A stretch of 56,764 bases of DNA from an uncultured Oscillospiraceae bacterium (GTDB taxonomy: Bacteria; Bacillota; Clostridia; Oscillospirales; Ruminococcaceae), in NCBI GenBank assembly GCA_964508295.1, contig CAZDSQ010000001.1, forward strand, positions 1-56,764, read 5' to 3'. The notes beneath the pieces were generated by a model. That model searched no databases. It was not told the DNA's origin and saw only the letters and a program-made list of their open reading frames with translations. The position numbers and the translations under genes were made by a program. Below are positions 12,769 through 54,510 of this stretch, piece by piece. Numbering within the stretch: the stretch's first letter is position 1; every line of letters starts with the position of its first letter.

Positions 12769-12944
12769 TTCATCAATTCCTTAATTAGTTTTGAAAGGGT
12801 GGGGAAGTAACTTTTAATATTATATCATACAATTTTAAAATAGTGTAGTTATTTTTTATTTGTTTTTTGTGTCTTTTTATAAATTAATCTGATTTTTTGC
12901 TTTAAAATAGTTGCTGTAAAAGACATAATACACCGTAAACTGTG

Positions 12945-13126
12945 GTTTACATAATTTAGTTTACATAATTATTGTGAGGTTTACATAATTACTGTGATGT
13001 AAATTCTGTAATAATGACGAAATTGTAGAAAATGTGTTTGTTGCCTTGAAAATTAACAAAAAATGTATTATTATTTATAATACAAACAGATTAGTTCTGT
13101 TTTACATAATTTTTCTTTACATATAT
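12945..13126. repeat. Array of TTTACATAAT-type motifs in the 389-nt AT-rich spacer between the DnaD-domain gene and spoIIM
   Basis: Perfect GTTTACATAATT at 12945-12956, 12959-12970 and 12979-12990. One inverted copy (GATGTAAATT, 12996-13005). Degenerate copies at 13101-13110 (TTTACATAAT) and 13116-13125 (TTTACATATA). Confidence 0.85.
12978..13005 (-). other. dif-like 11-6-11 element (candidate Xer recombination site)
   Basis: The minus strand reads AATTTACATCA-CAGTAA-TTATGTAAACC. The right arm matches 10 of 11 positions of the B. subtilis dif XerD arm TTATGTAAACT. Confidence 0.3.
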
Positions 13127-13178
13127 TCTTTTCACAGCTCATATATTTGTATAAAAAATGTGGGCAAAGGTGATCATA

Positions 13179-13799
13179 ATGAAAAGAATTATAAGGACAA
13201 GCGCTCTCAAAAACGGTTTATTTTCTCATAACCGTTTTTTTATTTCTGTCTTTTGGCTCGTTGGCATCGGAATTTTGCTTGGTACAGCCGCGGCAGGTAT
13301 GTTCTCGGGCGATGATAATTCCTTTGTAAATAACGTCTGGCAGACTTATTTTTTAAAACGTGAAACGGGGAGTATTTTTTCCTGCTTTGTAGGTACAATT
13401 TCTTCCTCAATAATGGTTTTGCTGTTATTCTATTTACTTGGCCTTTGCGCTATAGGATCGCCGTTTTTGTACTTAACTCTTGTTTTTGACTCTGTTGGAA
13501 AAGGCCTTGTTTTCGGCTTTTTATATCTTCAATATGGATTTTGGGGTATTTTAAAATCCTTTGTATTTTTGCTCCCTCAAAATGTTCTTATCTGTCTTTT
13601 GTTTATCTATGCAGTTAACTTTTCGGTTAAAATGTCAAGGCAGATGCGCTGTCTTTTGTCTGATAACAACATGACAGTGGATTACCACCTTAATTTTAAG
13701 AAGTACAATCAAAAGTATTTATTTTTTGGCTTTTGTTTAGTTTTAATCAGCGTATTTGATGCCATTATGTCACGATTTACGTATTTGATTATAAAATAA
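13179..13799 (+). CDS. spoIIM: Stage II sporulation protein M-like membrane protein
   Basis: About 206 aa with 5-6 TM segments. The FLLPQNVLICLLFIYAVNFSVKMSRQ segment parallels the B. subtilis SpoIIM FPQN region. Start taken at MKRIIR with an AAGGTGA RBS. Confidence 0.6.
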   Translation: MKRIIRTSALKNGLFSHNRFFISVFWLVGIGILLGTAAAGMFSGDDNSFVNNVWQTYFLKRETGSIFSCFVGTISSSIMVLLLFYLLGLCAIGSPFLYLTLVFDSVGKGLVFGFLYLQYGFWGILKSFVFLLPQNVLICLLFIYAVNFSVKMSRQMRCLLSDNNMTVDYHLNFKKYNQKYLFFGFCLVLISVFDAIMSRFTYLIIK

Positions 13800-13823
13800 A
13801 ATTTTAAGAAAGGAAGTGTTTAT

Positions 13824-14714
13824 ATGTTCGATATGCTCCAAGAATATAAAGTGTATCTGAAAGACAAGCTTTGCGTTTCAAAGAGCACCTACGATGCTTA
13901 TGTCCGGGACGTTTCGTCGTTCCTGAGCTATGTAGACATTTCCGTTTCCCACGATATCCGCGATGTCAGAGAAAATGATCTTGAGGGCTTTAAAAAAGCT
14001 CTTGAAATGCGTGGAAAAACACCCGCAACTGTAAACCGCAGTTTTGCATCGGTCAAGAGCTTTTACAGATTTTTGCGTGTTGCAGGAATTCAGAGCTATG
14101 ACCCTACTGAGAAATTCCACGCCGTAAAGCAAGAAAAAAAGCTCCCCACAATTCTTTCCGGAAAAGAAGTGGACAAGCTTTTAAGAATTCCGGATGTAAA
14201 TACTCCCAAGGGCTGTAGAGATAAGGCTATGCTTGAGCTTCTGTATGCAACGGGAATGAGAGTTTCCGAGCTTATTGATTTAAATCTTGACGATATTCAG
14301 TTGGGCAGAAGTATTGTTTCTTGCCGAAGCGGAAATGTGATAAGGAGTATTCCTATTTATTCCGCGGCAAAAAATGCGATCAAAGATTATCTTTTAAGGG
14401 TTTATCCTTATTATTCTCAAAATGATAATAACGCTCTTTTTATAAATATGAACGGTACAAGGCTTACAAGACAAGGCTTTTGGAAAATAGTTAAGCATTA
14501 TGCCGATGAACTTGGTCTAAAGGTTGAAATAACCCCACACACACTTCGCCATTCGTTTGCGGCGCATCTTATTGAAAACGGAGCAAGCGTTGAGGATGTT
14601 AAGGAAATGCTTGGACATGCAGATATTTCATCAACACAAATTTATGCACAAATTGTAAATAATCGGTTTAAAGATACATACAACCGTTGCCATCCGCGCG
14701 CAAAAAGTGTATAA
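13824..14714 (+). CDS. xerD: Tyrosine site-specific recombinase XerD/XerC family
   Basis: 296 aa. N-terminal SAM-like domain and catalytic region ATGMRVSEL...HTLRHSFAAHL...LGHADISSTQIY. Confidence 0.85.
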   Translation: MFDMLQEYKVYLKDKLCVSKSTYDAYVRDVSSFLSYVDISVSHDIRDVRENDLEGFKKALEMRGKTPATVNRSFASVKSFYRFLRVAGIQSYDPTEKFHAVKQEKKLPTILSGKEVDKLLRIPDVNTPKGCRDKAMLELLYATGMRVSELIDLNLDDIQLGRSIVSCRSGNVIRSIPIYSAAKNAIKDYLLRVYPYYSQNDNNALFINMNGTRLTRQGFWKIVKHYADELGLKVEITPHTLRHSFAAHLIENGASVEDVKEMLGHADISSTQIYAQIVNNRFKDTYNRCHPRAKSV

Positions 14715-43002: not shown

Positions 43003-43962
43003 ATGCGATCAATCGGTGTTTTAACAAGCGGAGGAGATGCTCCCGGTATGAACGCTGCCGTTCGTTCGGTTGTGCGCTGTGCTCTCGCTGAGGGATTTAA
43101 GGTTTATGGTATTTATGATGGTTATAACGGTCTTATCAATGGCAAAATTGAAGAGATGTCCGTTAATAGTGTTTCTAATATTATAAATAAGGGCGGTACA
43201 GCTATTTATACCGCAAGATGCCTTGAGTTTAAGGATCAGGAAGGCGTTTTAAAGGGAAAAGAAACCTGCGAAAAGCTTGGCATTGAAGGTCTTGTTGTTA
43301 TTGGAGGAGATGGATCTTTCCGTGGTGCAGCTGATCTTTCGTCAGCCGGCATTAACTGCGTAGGTATCCCCGGAACTATTGATAATGATATTACCTGTAC
43401 CGATTATACAATTGGTTACGACACAGCAATGAACACCGTTGTTGATTTAATTGATAAGCTTCGCGACACCTGTAACTCTCACGCTCGTTGCAGCGTTGTT
43501 GAGGTTATGGGCAGAAGATGCGGCGACCTTGCTCTTAATGCAGGTCTTGCGGGCGGTGCAACAGCTATAGTTGTTCCTGAAATTCCTTTTGATTTTGAAA
43601 AGGATATTCTTGCAAAGGTTGTTGACGCTAAAAACAGAGGCAAGCACAACTTCATCGTTGTTGTTGCTGAGGGAATCGGTGGCTCTGCTGAAATTGCAAA
43701 GAAGATCGAGGAAGCTACCGGAATTGAAACCCGTGCCGCTATCTTAGCACACATTCAGCGTGGTGGCGCTCCTTCCGCAAAGGACAGAATCATTGCTTCA
43801 AGAATGGGTAAATATGCTGTTGACCTCTTAAAGAATGGAATCGGTAACAGAGTTGTTGCTATGAAGGGTAACGAAATTGTTGACTATAATATCCACGAGG
43901 CTCTTAAAATGAAAAAGAGCATCGATCAGGAGCTCTTTAAGCTGGCAGATTTAATTAAATAA
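43003..43962 (+). CDS. pfkA: ATP-dependent 6-phosphofructokinase
   Basis: 319 aa. GVLTSGGDAPGMNAA, GGDGS and PGTIDND motifs. Confidence 0.92.
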   Translation: MRSIGVLTSGGDAPGMNAAVRSVVRCALAEGFKVYGIYDGYNGLINGKIEEMSVNSVSNIINKGGTAIYTARCLEFKDQEGVLKGKETCEKLGIEGLVVIGGDGSFRGAADLSSAGINCVGIPGTIDNDITCTDYTIGYDTAMNTVVDLIDKLRDTCNSHARCSVVEVMGRRCGDLALNAGLAGGATAIVVPEIPFDFEKDILAKVVDAKNRGKHNFIVVVAEGIGGSAEIAKKIEEATGIETRAAILAHIQRGGAPSAKDRIIASRMGKYAVDLLKNGIGNRVVAMKGNEIVDYNIHEALKMKKSIDQELFKLADLIK

Positions 43963-43966
43963 AACC

Positions 43967-44003
43967 AGAACCCTATGTAATTTGTTACATAGGGTTCTTT
44001 TTT
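43967..44003. terminator. Bidirectional terminator at the convergence of pfkA and the FAD-protein gene
   Basis: 14-bp perfect stem AGAACCCTATGTAA/TTACATAGGGTTCT with a 4-nt loop, a T-run downstream and an A-run upstream. Confidence 0.75.
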
Positions 44004-49440: not shown

Positions 49441-49758
49441 ATGAGCTATTTTGCCAATGTTTCGGCACTTATTGCTTCCCCGAGTTATACAAAATATTTA
49501 TTTTGTCTATGTATTTCTGCTGTTCCCTATGTCCTCTCAGACCGAAAGCGTATGCGCAAGAATATGGAACGTTTAAAGGGATATTTCTACGCTATGCTGC
49601 TTGAATATGACCATTGGTCTGATTCAGCTCGGCAAGAGTTTCTCGATGAAGCTCGATTGCGGTTTGAATCGCAAAAGAAATATAATTTTTTCCGTGATGA
49701 GCTTGTCGATACTGTTAAAGGTTATGAGCCTGGTTATCAGCCTTTAACAGTTGCTTAA
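49441..49758 (+). CDS. Junction ORF: short host-derived 5' end fused at attL to what appears to be the displaced 3' end of the prophage rep gene
   Basis: The att core is read in the same codon phase (L-F-C-L) here and at the 3' end of rep. The frame stays open for 82 codons beyond the core. Confidence 0.5.
   Translation: MSYFANVSALIASPSYTKYLFCLCISAVPYVLSDRKRMRKNMERLKGYFYAMLLEYDHWSDSARQEFLDEARLRFESQKKYNFFRDELVDTVKGYEPGYQPLTVA
49489..49510 (+). repeat. attL core (direct repeat)
   Basis: ACAAAAT-ATTTATTTTGTCTAT. The 15-mer ATTTATTTTGTCTAT (49496-49510) is identical to 54463-54477. Confidence 0.8.
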
Positions 49759-49768
49759 GGTGATTAGT

Positions 49769-49939
49769 ATGAAAAAATCACTTCATCCGATCCACCCTTT
49801 TTTCCGTTGTGTAGATTCAGCTATTTTCTTTGATTTCGTAGAGTATGTTTTGCGCAATTTTAAGTGCGAGCTTTTTCAGCTTCCCCAGGATGAACAACTT
49901 TATTTATTTTCGAGATTTAGGCTATTGGAGTATATGTGA
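49769..49939 (+). CDS. Prophage hypothetical protein (56 aa)
   Basis: ATG preceded by an AAGGTGA RBS. Same strand and tightly packed. No recognisable motif. Confidence 0.4.
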   Translation: MKKSLHPIHPFFRCVDSAIFFDFVEYVLRNFKCELFQLPQDEQLYLFSRFRLLEYM

Positions 49940-49984
49940 TTATGCAATGTAATGATATTTAATTATTTTAAGGAGTGTAATTTT

Positions 49985-50266
49985 ATGATTAAATGTACAA
50001 TTGAAGGTCTTTTTGTAGGTAGTTCTCAGATGGCTAATAGAAATGGCAGCGGCACCACTACTGTCGCAGATATCTACGTTATTAAGCTTAAGAAATCTTT
50101 TCAGATTTTCCGTTATGAACAGCAGCACCAGGACGGTACCGTTGTTTCAATCCCTTGTGAGCTTCGTTTCCGTCAGGATGGCTCTCCTTATTTTGTTTAT
50201 TTAGCTCCTTCTGAAGCGCTGCAGAACGAAGCTGATAAAAATAACTCTGTAAAGGAGAATAAATGA
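49985..50266 (+). CDS. Prophage small protein in the gV position (candidate ssDNA-binding protein)
   Basis: 93 aa with a strong AAGGAG RBS. Beta-rich composition. Size and position immediately upstream of the coat genes match inovirus gV. No sequence motif was recognised. Confidence 0.35.
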   Translation: MIKCTIEGLFVGSSQMANRNGSGTTTVADIYVIKLKKSFQIFRYEQQHQDGTVVSIPCELRFRQDGSPYFVYLAPSEALQNEADKNNSVKENK

Positions 50267-50451
50267 TGGACGGTGTTACTATGTCTACAATACTCACCAG
50301 TATTGGTGCTGTTTTTACCCAGGTTGTTACTTGGGCTGGTGATGTCCTCGGTCTGATAGCTTCAAATCCCATCCTCCTGCTTCTTTGTGTTGCTCTTGTG
50401 ATTGTCGGTTTTGTTGTTGGCTGGGTCTCTCGCCTATTCCGTACAAATTAA
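50263..50451 (+). CDS. Coat-like single-TM peptide, paralogue 1
   Basis: 62 aa (56 aa if it starts at 50281). Amphipathic N-terminus, a 20-residue hydrophobic core LLLLCVALVIVGFVVGWV, and a basic tail SRLFRTN. Confidence 0.5.
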   Translation: MMDGVTMSTILTSIGAVFTQVVTWAGDVLGLIASNPILLLLCVALVIVGFVVGWVSRLFRTN

Positions 50452-50464
50452 GGAGGTCTGATTT

Positions 50465-50635
50465 ATGGATACTATTCTCAGTAATATCGGTTTAGTTTTT
50501 ACCCAGGTTATCGCCTGGGCAGGAGATGTCCTCGAGCTTATTGCAACAGAGCCTATTCTTTTACTTATGTGCGTTGCACTTGTAATCGTTGGATTTGTTG
50601 TCGGCTGGGTCTCTCGCCTATTCCGTACTAACTAA
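50465..50635 (+). CDS. Coat-like single-TM peptide, paralogue 2 (below the ORF-track size cutoff)
   Basis: 56 aa: MDTILSNIGLVFTQVIAWAGDVLELIATEPILLLMCVALVIVGFVVGWVSRLFRTN. AAGGAGG RBS 8 nt upstream. 46 of 56 residues are identical to paralogue 1. Confidence 0.5.
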   Translation: MDTILSNIGLVFTQVIAWAGDVLELIATEPILLLMCVALVIVGFVVGWVSRLFRTN

Positions 50636-50640
50636 AGCTT

Positions 50641-50670
50641 AAAGCCCTCGCTCTGAGCGGGGGCTTTATT
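50641..50670 (+). terminator. Strong rho-independent terminator directly after the coat-like gene pair
   Basis: 11-bp GC-rich stem AAAGCCCTCGC/GCGGGGGCTTT with a 5-nt loop and a TTTATT tail. Confidence 0.75.
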
Positions 50671-50686
50671 CAAATAAGGTGATTTT

Positions 50687-51673
50687 ATGAAAAAGAAAAT
50701 TATATGCCTTGTTTCTTCAGTTCTTTTATCTGTATTCCTTTTTTGTATGCCGACTTTTGCATACTCTCAGCTTTTTACAAATTACTTTAATTTGAATTAT
50801 ATTTCATTAGGTTCTTTGCCTGCTTCTGACTACTATAATATTGTTAATCAGGAAGCTGGACAGATGGATGTTAAAACTTCTGACGGTAGTGATTTTGCCG
50901 AGTTTAGCTATATTGATATCTATTTTAGCTATTTCGGTACAACTATCAATGCTGGTGATCGCTTTGTAGGTTCTTTTTATTTCGTTGTATCAGACTATGC
51001 CTCAAATGGCAAAAATCCGAATAGTCCGCCCGCTACTTCAAGTATTCAAGCTCAAATTAATGGCGGTAGCTCTACTGTAATTGGAAAAGTTACTTTAGTA
51101 GCTCATTCTTATGATACTTCTATAAACTCAAATTTATATCGTTTTAAGGTTGATTTTGACTGTTATTTCAAAGAAACTGTTGAGCGTATGCAATGTTCAA
51201 TTCGCGTAAACTTTAATGGTTTTACCCCTCAGACTTCTCATATGATTTCAGCACAATTTCTTGAGATCTATAATTTTTATTTAGGTGCTGCCGATGCTCC
51301 TGAAGCTCCGAAGTATAGTGACCCTTACGATTCTTATGGGTCTGATCTTGATTCAACCGTGGATGGGATAGATAATTATACAGATGAGGAACAGGAAATT
51401 CTTGATAAAACCGAGTCTGGCAGAAATGAAGCTTTGCAGCTTTTCAATAATTTGACCGATACCGTTGGTCAGATTTCTCATACTCTTTTGGCCGTAACTT
51501 ATGGTTTGAATTACTTTATCGGTTCAAGTGCTTTGCTTCATTCGATTTTGTATATTTCTCTTGCTCTCGGTTTTGTGCTATTTATTTTCAATGCAGTCCC
51601 CTCTTTATCTCATTCCCGTTCTCGTTCAGAACCCAGGAATACTAATTCTGGTAAGAAAGGTGATGGTGGTTAA
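50687..51673 (+). CDS. Prophage secreted protein with a C-terminal membrane anchor (pIII-like minor coat / adsorption protein candidate)
   Basis: 328 aa. Signal peptide MKKKIICLVSSVLLSVFLFCMPTFAYS, an acidic linker, and a C-terminal TM LLHSILYISLALGFVLFIFNAV followed by a basic tail. Confidence 0.5.
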   Translation: MKKKIICLVSSVLLSVFLFCMPTFAYSQLFTNYFNLNYISLGSLPASDYYNIVNQEAGQMDVKTSDGSDFAEFSYIDIYFSYFGTTINAGDRFVGSFYFVVSDYASNGKNPNSPPATSSIQAQINGGSSTVIGKVTLVAHSYDTSINSNLYRFKVDFDCYFKETVERMQCSIRVNFNGFTPQTSHMISAQFLEIYNFYLGAADAPEAPKYSDPYDSYGSDLDSTVDGIDNYTDEEQEILDKTESGRNEALQLFNNLTDTVGQISHTLLAVTYGLNYFIGSSALLHSILYISLALGFVLFIFNAVPSLSHSRSRSEPRNTNSGKKGDGG

Positions 51674-51906
51674 TGCTTAATTTCTTTGATATGTTGGCTG
51701 AATGTTTTGACTTAATTCTTGCCTTTTTTACTACTATTGCAACTCTGATAACTAATTTCTTATCTGGACTTGTTACTGCTTTTAGAATCTTAACTGACGT
51801 TGTTACCATTCCCGTTATTTTTACTGCTTTTGTTCCTGGTATTATTTCATCTGCAATTTTTATCTTTGTTGCTCTGGGTGTCATAAAGTTTATTATAGGA
51901 CGGTGA
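51673..51906 (+). CDS. Prophage hydrophobic protein (77 aa, pVI-position)
   Basis: TAATG overlap with the upstream gene. Two to three TM segments. Confidence 0.45.
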   Translation: MLNFFDMLAECFDLILAFFTTIATLITNFLSGLVTAFRILTDVVTIPVIFTAFVPGIISSAIFIFVALGVIKFIIGR

Positions 51907-51910
51907 GATT

Positions 51911-52096
51911 ATGGGAAATATTACTGGTTGCTTTACTCTTATAGTTGATTTTTTCTGGGATTTTGTTACTCTCCTGGATTCAAAAGTAAGGTTTGATTTC
52001 TTTGGAGCTCTTTCGATTTCTATAGTTGATATTTTTGTCGGTTTTATTATTTTAGGATTTGTTATATCTGTATTTTGGAGAGGTGCAAAAGCATGA
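51911..52096 (+). CDS. Prophage hydrophobic protein (61 aa)
   Basis: Two predicted TM segments. Its stop overlaps the next start (ATGA). Confidence 0.45.
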   Translation: MGNITGCFTLIVDFFWDFVTLLDSKVRFDFFGALSISIVDIFVGFIILGFVISVFWRGAKA

Positions 52097-52212
52097 TTAT
52101 TTTATCTTGTTTACCATTTATTCTTGAAGGCTTTACTTACGTATCGGGTGTTTTTTTACTGTCTTATGTTTTTGGAATCGTATTTAAACTATTCGGAGGT
52201 GCTCGCCGATGA
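52093..52212 (+). CDS. Prophage micro-ORF (39 aa, hydrophobic), not in the ORF track
   Basis: MIILSCLPFILEGFTYVSGVFLLSYVFGIVFKLFGGARR. ATGA overlaps at both ends. Confidence 0.35.
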   Translation: MIILSCLPFILEGFTYVSGVFLLSYVFGIVFKLFGGARR

Positions 52213-52286
52213 GCTTGCAGGTAATTCTTTTAATGGCTATATTTATGGTTTTATGTATTTTTGTTTTTGGTGGAGGTGTTAATTGA
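52209..52286 (+). CDS. Prophage micro-ORF (25 aa, hydrophobic), not in the ORF track
   Basis: MSLQVILLMAIFMVLCIFVFGGGVN. It bridges the neighbouring ORFs exactly through overlapping stop/start codons. Confidence 0.25.
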   Translation: MSLQVILLMAIFMVLCIFVFGGGVN

Positions 52287-52480
52287 TGCAAACAATTCTT
52301 GATGCCCTTAGAGCTGTTCTTGGTGAGCCTGATTTTTATAAACAGCTTACAAGTAGCAGTAACTATACCTGGGACTATGCTGCAATGATTGAATATATGG
52401 TTGGTGCTCTTATCCTCTGTATCGTTGTTTCATCCGTTTTCCGCATAGTCGCTCTTCTTTTCAAAAGAGGTAAAAACTGA
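52286..52480 (+). CDS. Prophage small membrane protein (64 aa)
   Basis: GGTGGAGGTG RBS. Soluble N-terminus, one C-terminal TM and a basic tail KRGKN. TGATG overlap with the ATPase gene. Confidence 0.45.
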   Translation: MQTILDALRAVLGEPDFYKQLTSSSNYTWDYAAMIEYMVGALILCIVVSSVFRIVALLFKRGKN

Positions 52481-53241
52481 TGATTAGAGTATTTTTCGGT
52501 AATATCGGATGCGGCAAGACTACCCTGGCAGCACGTCAGTTTTATAAGTGCCTTCGACGTGATCAGCGAGACGTTAATAGAAAACGTACACCACTTTATG
52601 ACTATTACATTTCAAATTTTGAATGTGAGCTTGCGCAGTTCTGCCGCCTTGCCGATCTCGGACGTTGGACTTTCCCTGAACATTCGTATATCATTATCGA
52701 CGAAGCTGGCATTGAGTATAATAACCGTAAGTTTAAATCTCTCCCACAAGAAACGATTGCTTGGCTTAAGCTTAGCCGACACTACAAATGCGACGTTGAT
52801 TTTCTCTCTCAGAGCTGGGATGATATGGATATTACGATTCGCCGCCTGGCATCAGAGCTGTGGTATGTACGTAAGCTCGGACCTTTCACAATGCTTCGCC
52901 GAATATATAAACGAGTAGGCATTGACTCAGAAACCCACCAAATTTGCGATTTTTACGAGTTTGGCAAAATACTGCCTTGTATACTTCCCCCACCTTTTAG
53001 GCAGCATAACATCGAAATTTTCCTGCGAAAACCCTATTATAAATACTTCGACAGTTATACTAAACCCGAAACCCCCGTCTTTCCTTTCTCAGAGCTTAAA
53101 GCAAAAGCTGTTCCTTTTCCGAAGCAGCTGCTTACCTGGATAAAAGGAATTGGGCCGCGCGCCCTTAGCGCAGTTACCAGATTGCAGCTTAAAGAGAAGC
53201 TTGCCCTGGTCCTCGACCGCCTGCGCTGCAGGAAACAGTAA
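52480..53241 (+). CDS. Zot/pI-like P-loop ATPase (filamentous phage assembly protein)
   Basis: 253 aa. Walker A GNIGCGKT, Walker B YIIIDEAG, and the Zot-family block LSRHYKCDVDFLSQSWDDMD. Confidence 0.75.
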   Translation: MIRVFFGNIGCGKTTLAARQFYKCLRRDQRDVNRKRTPLYDYYISNFECELAQFCRLADLGRWTFPEHSYIIIDEAGIEYNNRKFKSLPQETIAWLKLSRHYKCDVDFLSQSWDDMDITIRRLASELWYVRKLGPFTMLRRIYKRVGIDSETHQICDFYEFGKILPCILPPPFRQHNIEIFLRKPYYKYFDSYTKPETPVFPFSELKAKAVPFPKQLLTWIKGIGPRALSAVTRLQLKEKLALVLDRLRCRKQ

Positions 53242-53268
53242 ATTCTCCTGCCTTTTGTTACCAAAAAA

Positions 53269-53314
53269 AGACAAACAAAACCCGCCAAACATATTGGCGG
53301 GTTTTAGTTTGTCT
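53269..53314 (+). other. Long near-perfect hairpin (terminator and/or packaging-signal / origin candidate)
   Basis: 20-bp stem (AGACAAAC+AAAACCCGCCAA pairing with TTGGCGGGTTTT+GTTTGTCT) with a single A bulge and a 5-nt loop, 28 nt after the ATPase stop. Confidence 0.6.
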
Positions 53315-53344
53315 GACGCCCCAAAACCCCGAGGGGTATCACGG

Positions 53345-53396
53345 GGTTAAAATTCCTCATATAATCCTTGGGTTAAAATTCCTCATATAATCCTTG
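53345..53396 (+). repeat. Perfect 26-nt tandem duplication GGTTAAAATTCCTCATATAATCCTTG x2
   Basis: Copies at 53345-53370 and 53371-53396 are identical. The second copy runs into the -35 box of the rep promoter. Confidence 0.9.
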
Positions 53397-53422
53397 ACAA
53401 ATGCAAAATTATGCCTTAAAAT
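53394..53422 (+). promoter_or_regulatory. Consensus sigma-A promoter upstream of rep
   Basis: TTGACA (53394-53399), 17-nt spacer, TAAAAT (53417-53422). Confidence 0.65.
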
Positions 53423-53429
53423 GAAAATA

Positions 53430-53497
53430 CCGGATGCGCAGCATCCGTCTAAACATCCGGTACCGGTCGCTGAGGGGCAGTTCCCTTACTGCCCCCT
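53430..53497 (+). other. Cluster of GC-rich hairpins in the rep leader (origin / nick-site candidates)
   Basis: CGGATGC-GCA-GCATCCG (53431-53447). Palindrome CCGGTACCGG (53457-53466). GGGGCAG-TTCCCTTA-CTGCCCC (53474-53495). Confidence 0.5.
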
Positions 53498-53516
53498 GCA
53501 AACTTTAAGGGAGTGA

Positions 53517-54485
53517 ATGACTATGACACAAGAATTTTTCGAGAAAAATTACAAATTCGGAATGGACTGGTTGAACGGTGTTCTACCACTTACTGAGGTT
53601 GACGAGGTTTTTGATATGCTCGAATCCTTTTCGTCTAAGCTTAAGAAAGATCGTTGGAAGCTTATGTCGAAGGGTAAGTATAACTATCAAGTCCGTTATT
53701 GCCTTGATGATAAAGGTTTTATTCAGCTTATGTATAATACTGATTATTATGATGCTGACGGGAATCCTGGACTTACTGCATTAAATCCCGATGAATCAAA
53801 TAACCCCTATATTTTCTTTTCTATTTCGGGTGATGGTATCAGATACCTTGCTTCTATCGGTGGCGAAATGACCGCTTTAAATAAGCTTTTATGCTATTTT
53901 TATGCAAATGGTTTCAAAGCTACTCGTTTTGATGTCTACTGCGATATTCTTGATAAAAGAAATGAAATCGTTCCTCTTCTGAAGAAGTCTTTTGATTATT
54001 TTATTCATCCAAGAGTTAGTTATCCTACTTTAACTACTGGTTTTCATCGCGATCGTAAAAATATTCAAATCCGTTATTCTTATGATGATGATGGCAAGAG
54101 ATTCTATAATCTGCAGTTAGGTCATCATGGCTCTTTATTCGGTATGTTCCGTTGCTATAATAAGCTTATTGAGGTGCAGGATGGCAGACTTGCAGGCTTT
54201 TCATCCGAGATTTTAAAGCAATACGGTGTATCTGATTATTGGTATAGGTTAGAGTATGAGATACACGAACATGCTGCAGCTTGTTTTAATGCTGCTATGC
54301 AGGAGAGCTGCGAAAACAATCAGCTTTCTGTTCGGAGTATTTTTTGTGTTGCTGCAGAAAAAATGTTTTCTCCTGTTACTGTTAAAGGTTTAGGTATGAA
54401 GCTTGCTGATTCAGATAAGTGTGTTATATGGCTTGATTTTCTCAGCTTCGTTCGACAAAATGATTTATTTTGTCTATTTATGTAG
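53517..54485 (+). CDS. Rep_trans-type rolling-circle replication initiator (apparently C-terminally truncated by integration)
   Basis: 322 aa. FGMDWLNGV, TRFDVYCDI, FRCYNKLIE and WYRLEYEI match my recollection of the PF02486 family blocks (RstA/RepC-like). The last 3 codons plus the stop lie beyond the att core. Confidence 0.75.
   Translation: MTMTQEFFEKNYKFGMDWLNGVLPLTEVDEVFDMLESFSSKLKKDRWKLMSKGKYNYQVRYCLDDKGFIQLMYNTDYYDADGNPGLTALNPDESNNPYIFFSISGDGIRYLASIGGEMTALNKLLCYFYANGFKATRFDVYCDILDKRNEIVPLLKKSFDYFIHPRVSYPTLTTGFHRDRKNIQIRYSYDDDGKRFYNLQLGHHGSLFGMFRCYNKLIEVQDGRLAGFSSEILKQYGVSDYWYRLEYEIHEHAAACFNAAMQESCENNQLSVRSIFCVAAEKMFSPVTVKGLGMKLADSDKCVIWLDFLSFVRQNDLFCLFM
54455..54477 (+). repeat. attR core (direct repeat)
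   Basis: ACAAAATGATTTATTTTGTCTAT, differing from attL by one inserted G. Confidence 0.8.
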
Positions 54486-54510
54486 ATTTTTTAAAGTGAC
54501 TTCCCTATAA

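Follow-up and report, generated by a model that had tools for sequence, protein, structure and literature searches.

The window analysed here comprises positions 1 to 56,764 of contig CAZDSQ010000001.1 from an uncultured Oscillospiraceae bacterium, and the present work concerns an inovirus-like prophage within it together with the palindromic, dif-like host site at which the prophage lies. In a comparison of the ten phage open reading frames (ORFs) with Pfam and PHROGs, a Zot/pI-like protein was the sole match, a Rep_trans initiator was recognised via its homologues, and no integrase, transposase or other recombinase was found. This agrees with an earlier reading of the locus made without database searches (the sequence-only reading), which had described the element as integrase-less and had proposed its integration by Xer/dif recombination. 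Since the phage lacks a recombinase of its own, it seems likely, from the comparisons presented below, that a temperate inovirus of a gut Clostridia host integrates at a dif-like site of that host by means of the host Xer-family recombinase(s). The prophage, its replication gene and its junctions are arranged as follows.

49511-54477, + strand (all genes): inovirus-like prophage of 4,967 bp, defined by the ORF map, Zot/pI matches, Rep_trans and AT skew
53517-54485, + strand: rep, encoding a Rep_trans rolling-circle initiator; a 322-aa ORF composed of 320 phage-encoded residues plus F-M-stop from host DNA
49441-49758, + strand: ORF opening in host DNA and continuing across attL into the 82 C-terminal codons cut off from rep (from ORF rejoining and homologue collinearity)
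49478-49494, + strand: host half of attL, made up of the left arm preceded by a C-run extension, CCCC-GAGTTATACAAAA; fits the oriented consensus ...ctCCCt.AATTATACAAAA of 107 listed sites
49495-49500, + strand: 6-bp central (crossover) region TATTTA at attL; its reverse complement, TAAATA, recurs among the centres of the site family
49501-49513, + strand: right arm at attL, TTTTGTCTAT plus GTA, shared with or derived from the phage, which leaves a near-intact palindrome
54451-54467, + strand: phage half of attR, consisting of a degenerate left arm TTCGACAAAAT and central GATTTA (from the junction sequences)
54468-54480, + strand: host right arm at attR, TTTTGTCTATTTA, which fits the consensus TTTTGTATAATTg at 10 of 13 positions
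54478-54488, + strand: TTATGTAGATT, the 11-mer that the sequence-only reading had called XerD-arm-like; the last 3 nt of the true arm plus an AT-rich flank

At attR, ACAAAATGATTTATTTTGTCTAT (54455-54477) is followed by TTATGTAGATT (54478-54488), base for base as had been claimed, while attL reads ACAAAAT-ATTTATTTTGTCTAT, with its last base at 49510, and then GTATTTCTGCT. The two junctions share an exact identity block of 15 bp, ATTTATTTTGTCTAT (49496-49510 and 54463-54477). The reconstruction of attB, suggested in the sequence-only reading as a check, was carried out by joining 49482-49510 to 54478-54480. It yielded GAGTTATACAAAA TATTTA TTTTGTCTATTTA, a 13-6-13 palindrome that reads CCCC-GAGTTATACAAAA-TATTTA-TTTTGTCTATTTA with its flank and belongs to a site family conserved in Clostridia. 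The right arm at attL differs from the rebuilt arm TTTTGTCTATTTA at only 1 of 13 positions, and attL is the only match to the whole site in the window at up to three mismatches. The centre at attR is GATTTA (54462-54467). The window attP shares 5 of 6 central positions with attB and has one good arm, the other being degenerate; alternatively, it can be read as an arm TTCGACAAAA, a 7-bp spacer TGATTTA, and then TTTTGTCTATGTA. A small inverted repeat, GACAAAAT/ATTTTGTC, shows in the fold of the phage half of attR.

Two other candidates within the phage were rejected. A supposed second internal arm copy, AGTTATACTAAA at 53053-53064, has neither a centre nor an arm adjacent to it and occurs at chance frequency. 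A folded single-strand attP of the CTX type was discarded because the structure is not significant (z = -0.08), comprising just the small arm/arm hairpin.

The attachment site of the phage is located within rep. Domain PF02486 was detected in 18 of 25 aligned members of the Rep family, the profile of which matches the structure of a staphylococcal plasmid Rep (PDB 4CIJ, E = 2e-6). When 53517-54477 was joined to 49511-49758, a single ORF of 402 aa was restored. Homologues of ~400 aa, collinear with the rejoined ORF, are encoded on ~5-kb contigs, and forms of 310-330 aa on contigs of 70-176 kb; the truncated forms all stop at the same alignment column, with the motif N-x-[IYL]-[HF]-[LFC]-[VL]. 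In a close relative (L129; Rep 75% identical) the gene set is the same and is found on a contig of 4,947 bp; its 400-aa rep is uninterrupted and contains ...ACAAAATGATTTATTTTGTCTATGT..., the reconstructed attP core. The rejoined ORF, the lengths of the homologues and the attP of this relative together establish that the prophage boundaries are correct. Integration costs Rep its 80 C-terminal residues. After integration, the ORF 49441-49758 starts from an ATG located in host DNA; no such fusion occurs in relatives such as L002, and it may be accidental.

Scans with the Rep alignment for further relatives gave 0 loci in viral contigs and one tiny locus in metagenome contigs, and integrated and free relatives were gathered by exact-protein look-ups instead. 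The attB site was rebuilt in six independent integrations, the window included, and in each of them it is a 12/13-6-12/13 palindrome. The sites in the relatives read as follows.

L002 attB: CAATTATACTAAA CATTCA TTTAGTATAATTG
L006 attB: CAATTCGGCTAAA TATTCA TTTAGTATAATTG
L007 attB: CAATTATACAAAA TGAATA TTTTGTATAATTG; L130 is of the same type (right arm TTTTGTATAATTG/A)
L131 attB: AACTTCGCAAAA CATTGA TTTTGCGAAGTT

In all five of these relatives the centres of attP and attB are identical (6/6). The arm shared by attP and attB matches at 10-13 of 13 positions, and the other attP arm is degenerate. Where the host arms differ, as in L131, the phage arm is altered correspondingly, giving an identity of 23 bp. 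The phages of L007 and L130 copy the arm with the G-run, and those of the window, L002 and L006 the opposite arm; as a consequence, the prophages are oppositely oriented beside the same xerD gene. That phages copy either arm hints that the two arms are equivalent. The prophages of L006, L007, L130 and L131 directly adjoin genes of the Xer family. L131 (2990-3030 and 7960-8000) is a distant relative (Rep 32% identical), in which 120 bp separate the palindrome from the start of a Xer gene of 323 aa. This gene shares 52% identity with its counterpart beside AATTATACAAAA-type sites, and the site-Xer pair could be used to study the evolution of arm specificity.

An empty attB in the same species was not obtained: exact-protein look-ups of galT with two start codons gave nothing, and the cysteine desulfurase gene was found just on a 1.4-kb contig. 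No synteny with the window was seen among the palindrome-bearing loci listed, and the collections searched contain hardly any of the window's proteins.

The distribution of the palindrome was analysed by scanning species-representative genomes (one per species) with the pattern TTATACWAAAN6TTTWGTATAA; the figures below refer to the matches listed. At least 120 stretches match, nearly all from Clostridia, and they represent at least 116 Clostridia genomes, compared with ~4 chance matches expected in the whole collection by our own estimate. The carriers are mostly of the Acutalibacteraceae, Ruminococcaceae, Oscillospiraceae and Butyricicoccus type (Oscillospirales-type). The few matches outside Clostridia (Flavobacterium, Chitinophagales, Nitrosocosmicus, Spirochaetia) are in line with the expected chance matches. 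On the Spirochaetia chromosome (OZ244590.1; L033, 1256-1363) two matches lie 82 bp apart in an apparent tandem repeat without a skew switch; they have no relation to the palindrome of Clostridia and probably belong to a repeat family that matches by accident.

The oriented consensus of 107 listed sites is AATTATACAAAA T[GAC][AC]A[TA]A TTTTGTATAATT nAGGGnAG. The site has the form of a ~30-bp near-perfect palindrome, with arms of 12-13 bp (AATTATACAAAA / TTTTGTATAATT) around an asymmetric 6-bp centre and a G-run on one side, which is present in at least 86% of the 107. The site of the window fits this consensus, its CCCC flank included.

The position of the site relative to replication was assessed by GC skew at the 62 listed loci with at least 1.5 kb on either side. 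Mean GC skew was +0.066 on the left flank of the site and -0.070 on the right flank; the left value exceeded the right one in 57 of the 62 (binomial p = 3e-12), the pattern (+,-) being found in 42 and (-,+) in one. Genes converge on the site as well, with 69% of coding sequence on the + strand to its left and 67% on the - strand to its right. A skew switch combined with converging genes is the signature of a replication terminus. In the window, the sequence-only reading had noted that gene polarity converges near ~44 kb, and indeed gene orientation and GC skew both switch at about 44.0 kb, the cumulative maximum standing at 44,000 after removal of the prophage. The corresponding features are:

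43962-44003, no strand: convergence of gene orientation and maximum of cumulative GC skew, 5.5 kb from attB
13158-14714, + strand: host operon of spoIIM and a gene for a XerD-like tyrosine recombinase of 296 aa (Pfam SpoIIM; Phage_integrase and Phage_int_SAM_1)

A gene for a Xer-family tyrosine recombinase adjoins the palindrome in 44 of ~105 listed loci (~40%). About 40 of these 44 genes are of a ~330-aa type with the 5' end 1-150 bp from the site, and a few encode a ~300-aa XerD-like type with the 3' end adjoining it. The ~330-aa protein scores 218 bits to XerC, 209 to XerA and 204 to XerD, all under the curated cut-offs, 153 bits to XerS and 58 bits to a XerH PDB chain; XerD and XerA are its nearest solved structures. 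A second, XerD-like gene is present, and in some genomes it is the one that adjoins the site. The XerD-like protein of the window is 45-46% identical to the products of the XerD-like genes that directly adjoin the site in L006 and L007, and is a candidate for the integration enzyme or its partner. The conservation of the palindrome and its location at the terminus and beside xer genes, mostly with no phage genes detected nearby, mark it as a host element in its own right.

Other elements have left traces at the same site. Six palindrome-bearing genomes were listed with a Zot-like gene beside an intact site. In L072 (288-5918) a half-site copy, consisting of the left arm and centre without mismatches, lies 5.6 kb from the intact site; in L068 (41-6080) there is a right-arm copy 5.2 kb away and another half-site 820 bp upstream; and in L016 (4075-5204) a half-site lies 1.1 kb from the intact one. 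The inoviruses of these three loci have a different Zot and gave no Rep_trans match with the Rep_trans queries used, and the short inserts measure 0.8-1.1 kb. Such loci suggest tandem arrays or remnants of Xer-exploiting elements. At Vibrio dif1, arrays of integrative mobile elements exploiting Xer (IMEX) leave one intact site, an arrangement that these three loci resemble. Judged from the junctions, several inovirus lineages and short inserts appear to use the palindrome, with one intact copy left after integration.

The idea of Xer/dif integration put forward in the sequence-only reading stands in part. An integrase-less phage at a terminus-proximal dif-like site, with a borrowed host Xer-type recombinase, is what the comparative evidence supports; the motif, the register and the canonical XerC/XerD 28-mer on which it had been built did not survive. 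Under that reading, TTATGTAGATT would be a XerD arm, GTCTAT the centre and ATATTTATTTT a degenerate XerC arm, and integration at this 28-mer would be of the TLC or VGJ type; the match of 9 of 11 positions to the XerD arm of Bacillus subtilis (TTATGTAAACT) is real, as are the closeness to the terminus and the lack of an integrase. However, matches to the arm with up to two mismatches occur at chance frequency: the window has 44, the expectation being 33.1 +/- 5.7, and a count of 44 was reached in 3 of 100 shuffles. The 28-mer ATATTTATTTTGTCTATTTATGTAGATT scored -23.7 bits on a matrix of 13 Firmicutes dif sites (Kono et al. 2011), compared with 29-42 bits for the published sites and 11-15 for shuffled windows. 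The 11-mer is missing at the equivalent position on the host side of the five related integrations, which read TAATTGGGTGT, TAATTGGCAAT, TAATTGAGGGT, TAATTAAGGGT and ACTGTAGTGAT, while a different, strongly conserved palindrome spans the junction in 6 of 6 cases. The centre of this palindrome is TATTTA, and GTCTAT falls within its right arm, where the phage-host identity, believed to stop at a boundary between centre and arm, in fact ends. TTATGTAGATT overlaps the true right arm (54468-54480) by 3 nt only, and the real target lies ~10-20 bp leftward; the likeness of the 11-mer to a XerD arm is due to chance. The doubt already voiced about the putative XerC arm was justified, the register being wrong. 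A dif profile search of the window gave nothing above shuffle level (best score 12.0; best for the rebuilt attB -0.7), the B. subtilis dif had no match in the window at up to three mismatches, and a relaxed dif core pattern matched only a repeat cluster at 12.9 kb. By all three approaches (mismatch search, relaxed pattern, Firmicutes matrix) the window contains no canonical dif, and we give integration at such a site almost no credence. The cluster at 12.9 kb (TTATGTAAAC, 12944-13005) was itself rejected as dif, as it consists of three direct repeats that are not arranged around 6-bp spacers, and the skew does not switch there.

Integration by the phage's own Rep_trans protein deserves consideration, given that attP lies within rep and that proteins of this family are strand-transferases. 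The protein would nick the loop of a hairpin or cruciform formed at the host palindrome, a perfect hairpin-former with a 6-nt loop, and join it to a phage origin inside rep, comparable to the pT181 origin in repC. Yet more than 100 genomes have kept the palindrome, in most cases without a detected phage gene in the vicinity, and the same site is occupied by prophages that bear Zot but gave no match to the Rep_trans queries used. The attP of most relatives is one-armed, making a matching hairpin impossible, and that of the window has no significant fold, as given above. Moreover, the products are hybrids formed conservatively and reciprocally, and their 6-bp centres are identical, as is the hallmark of a tyrosine recombinase. 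Taken together, this makes a Rep-mediated event very improbable. The palindrome could also be the cognate site of a host tyrosine recombinase with a function other than dimer resolution: it might regulate the ~330-aa gene as an operator or autoregulatory site, or it might serve a domesticated element as its att site. The phage would then depend on that recombinase instead of the genuine Xer/dif machinery. It lies 1-150 bp upstream of that gene in about 40% of the listed genomes, its arm includes TGTATAAT, readable as an extended -10 box, the one-sided G-run might serve as a ribosome-binding site, and both Xer-like proteins score under the XerC and XerD equivalog cut-offs. Against this, in ~60% of the listed genomes, including the window, the gene is not adjacent and conservation of the site is equal; the G-run is retained whichever side the gene occupies; a position at the skew switch with converging genes defines dif rather than an operator; in the XerS and XerH systems, too, xer is typically linked to its dif (PMC5357621); and the window, which contains the terminus, lacks a canonical dif. 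We therefore regard a site of this other kind as unlikely.

Several observations weigh against integration at a host dif-like site. Between attP and attB of the window there is a mismatch at the first central position, or else a spacer difference of 1 nt, and the right arm of the window departs from the consensus at 3 of 13 positions. The site of the window is 5.5 kb off the skew switch, and in L006, L007 and L130 no switch is visible, the local skew on the left of the prophage being slightly negative. The ~330-aa, site-linked type of Xer is absent from the window, in which just the XerD-like gene occurs, 35 kb away. The occurrence of one site per genome is based on no assembly being found twice among the matches listed. 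It should also be noted that the host genome was seen within the 56.8-kb window only; the uniqueness of the site and its global position at the terminus rest on relatives and on local skew.

What was directly observed comprises the junctions, the attP of a free relative, the co-variation of attP with attB and, for the host site, its conservation, its location at the terminus and its linkage to xer; from these observations we infer catalysis by Xer, the Xer involved, the order of strand exchange and the resolution of dimers by the site. In the most likely course of integration via host Xer, the double-stranded replicative form would recombine, through its attP within rep, with the host dif-like site by the action of host Xer-family tyrosine recombinase(s). 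Judged from the matching centre and the one good arm, the exchange would be begun by subunits bound to the conserved arm. By analogy with IMEX of the VGJphi type, the mismatch or extra base beside the degenerate attP arm may disfavour a second exchange. A crossover in or beside the centre would leave a near-intact palindrome at attL, presumably still able to resolve chromosome dimers, and a crippled attR, which should slow excision and stabilise the prophage, as in the case of LME-1 in Legionella. Full-length Rep would be produced only after excision, and integration and excision would toggle Rep between its truncated and full-length forms.

A broader proposal is that the palindrome AATTATACAAAA-N6-TTTTGTATAATT(nAGGG), with arm variants such as AACTTCGCAAAA, forms together with the ~330-aa Xer an undescribed dimer-resolution system of many gut Clostridia (Oscillospirales: Acutalibacteraceae, Ruminococcaceae, Oscillospiraceae, Butyricicoccus and others), exploited by ~5-kb inoviruses with attP in the rep frame. 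On the comparative data we judge the chances of this proposal to be evenly balanced.

The remaining features of the prophage are those of an inovirus: a pI/Zot ATPase, coat-like transmembrane ORFs, a rolling-circle Rep, the size and a gene order on a single strand. Its + strand is T-rich, with an AT skew as low as -0.245. Besides several small membrane ORFs, the following genes were recognised.

52480-53241, + strand: Zot/pI-like assembly ATPase, an inovirus hallmark (Pfam Zot E = 6e-8; PHROG 197 E = 1.5e-14)
50263-50635, + strand: two tandem genes for small transmembrane proteins resembling major coat proteins, 62 and 56 aa (translations; direct repeat D1, 76% identical)
50687-51673, + strand: 328-aa protein with a signal peptide and a C-terminal anchor (position and sequence features)

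The coat-like gene is duplicated in tandem (50263-50451 and 50465-50635; 76% identical over 172 nt), and the C-terminal halves of the two proteins are almost identical. By its position and sequence features, the 328-aa protein is a candidate for a pIII-like adsorption protein; no family match was found for it in Pfam or PHROGs. In the intergenic region 5' of rep (53242-53516) there are a hairpin resembling a terminator (53279-53306), a 26-bp sequence perfectly duplicated in tandem (53344-53395; GGGTTAAAATTCCTCATATAATCCTT x2) and two more GC-rich hairpins, which probably represent the phage origin, packaging signal or rep promoter region.

Elsewhere in the window, the rejected cluster at 12944-13005 (- strand) comprises three direct repeats of AATTATGTAAAC, one of them an exact TTATGTAAACT, plus an inverted copy. 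It lies in a divergent promoter region, flanked by a DnaB_2/DnaI-like gene pair and by the operon of spoIIM and the XerD-like gene, and the repeats may form an operator. Curiously, this places a XerD-arm-like word upstream of a xerD-like gene.

Among known systems, the IMEX phages of Vibrio and Xanthomonas (VGJphi, CTXphi, TLCphi) are similar in several respects (PMC5357621). They too are inoviruses without an integrase, their attP mimics the host dif with a matching centre and one poor arm, a usable dif is rebuilt at one junction only, and several elements may stack at the site. The present phages differ in having Gram-positive Clostridia hosts and a target that is a near-perfect 12/13-6-12/13 palindrome, unrelated in sequence to XerC/XerD arms. 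Their attP is of the double-stranded type and lies in the rep coding sequence, with no folded single-strand site like that of CTX, and members of the family copy either arm.

The closest logic is found in LME-1 and XerL of Legionella (Nicholson et al. 2022, PMC9765430), where the att site of a mobile element exposed an unrecognised dif. The XerL dif and the Clostridia palindrome are both conserved across a clade in varying neighbourhoods, near the GC-skew inflection, AT-rich and intergenic, and their arms are perfectly symmetric and resemble none of the known Xer motifs; in each case a partial mimic gives rise to one intact and one modified site. The crippled att site has been reported to stabilise LME-1 in Legionella (PMC9765430). 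Dependence on XerL and dimer-resolution phenotypes were shown experimentally for that system (PMC9765430), whereas the present site was characterised by comparison. LME-1 is not an inovirus, and its arms measure 10 bp, compared with 12-13 bp plus a G-run here.

In XerS/difSL of streptococci and XerH/difH of Helicobacter and Campylobacter, as in the Clostridia, many genomes have dif immediately next to the xer gene (PMC5357621). The likeness to difH extends to A-tracts at the arm ends facing the centre (difH left arm AGTTATGAAAA, window left arm AGTTATACAAAA). Unlike XerS and XerH, the ~330-aa Xer scores best to the XerC, XerA and XerD models, is linked to the site in just ~40% of the loci and is accompanied by a second, XerD-like gene.

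The inoviruses of Enterocloster (Burckhardt et al. 2023, PMC10061712) resemble the present phage in being small pI/Zot prophages of Gram-positive gut commensals flanked by direct repeats. They are secreted as circular ssDNA (PMC10061712). They are 6.5-8.5 kb in size (PMC10061712), compared with about 5 kb, and an attP in rep, in the present family. A search of the paper for the terms dif, integrase and recombinase gave no match, and no mechanism of integration is given there.

The differences from all of these systems are the host clade, the sequence of the site, the location of attP inside rep and the copying of either arm by the phages. A literature search, which was partly poorly targeted, found no description of the palindrome arm in a dif context or of Xer-dependent inoviruses of Clostridia. 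In Table S1 of Kono et al. 2011, the canonical dif sites predicted for strains of Clostridium botulinum are 137-175 degrees away from the GC-skew shift point, and for C. perfringens and C. beijerinckii the prediction failed. With the Clostridium predictions this far from the skew switch, the palindrome system may have been missed, and dif may be mis-assigned more widely in Clostridia.

If the palindrome is dif, a gap would be filled for major gut bacteria, and hundreds of uncultured gut species would gain a simple marker of the replication terminus. The site is also a candidate tool for marker removal in the style of Xer-cise in anaerobes that are hard to engineer, and it would offer a defined landing site at which to seek further integrated elements. 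The exploitation of Xer by filamentous phages would be extended to Gram-positive commensals, in an unusual layout in which the attachment site is encoded within the replication gene and each phage lineage appears free to copy either arm of the host site.

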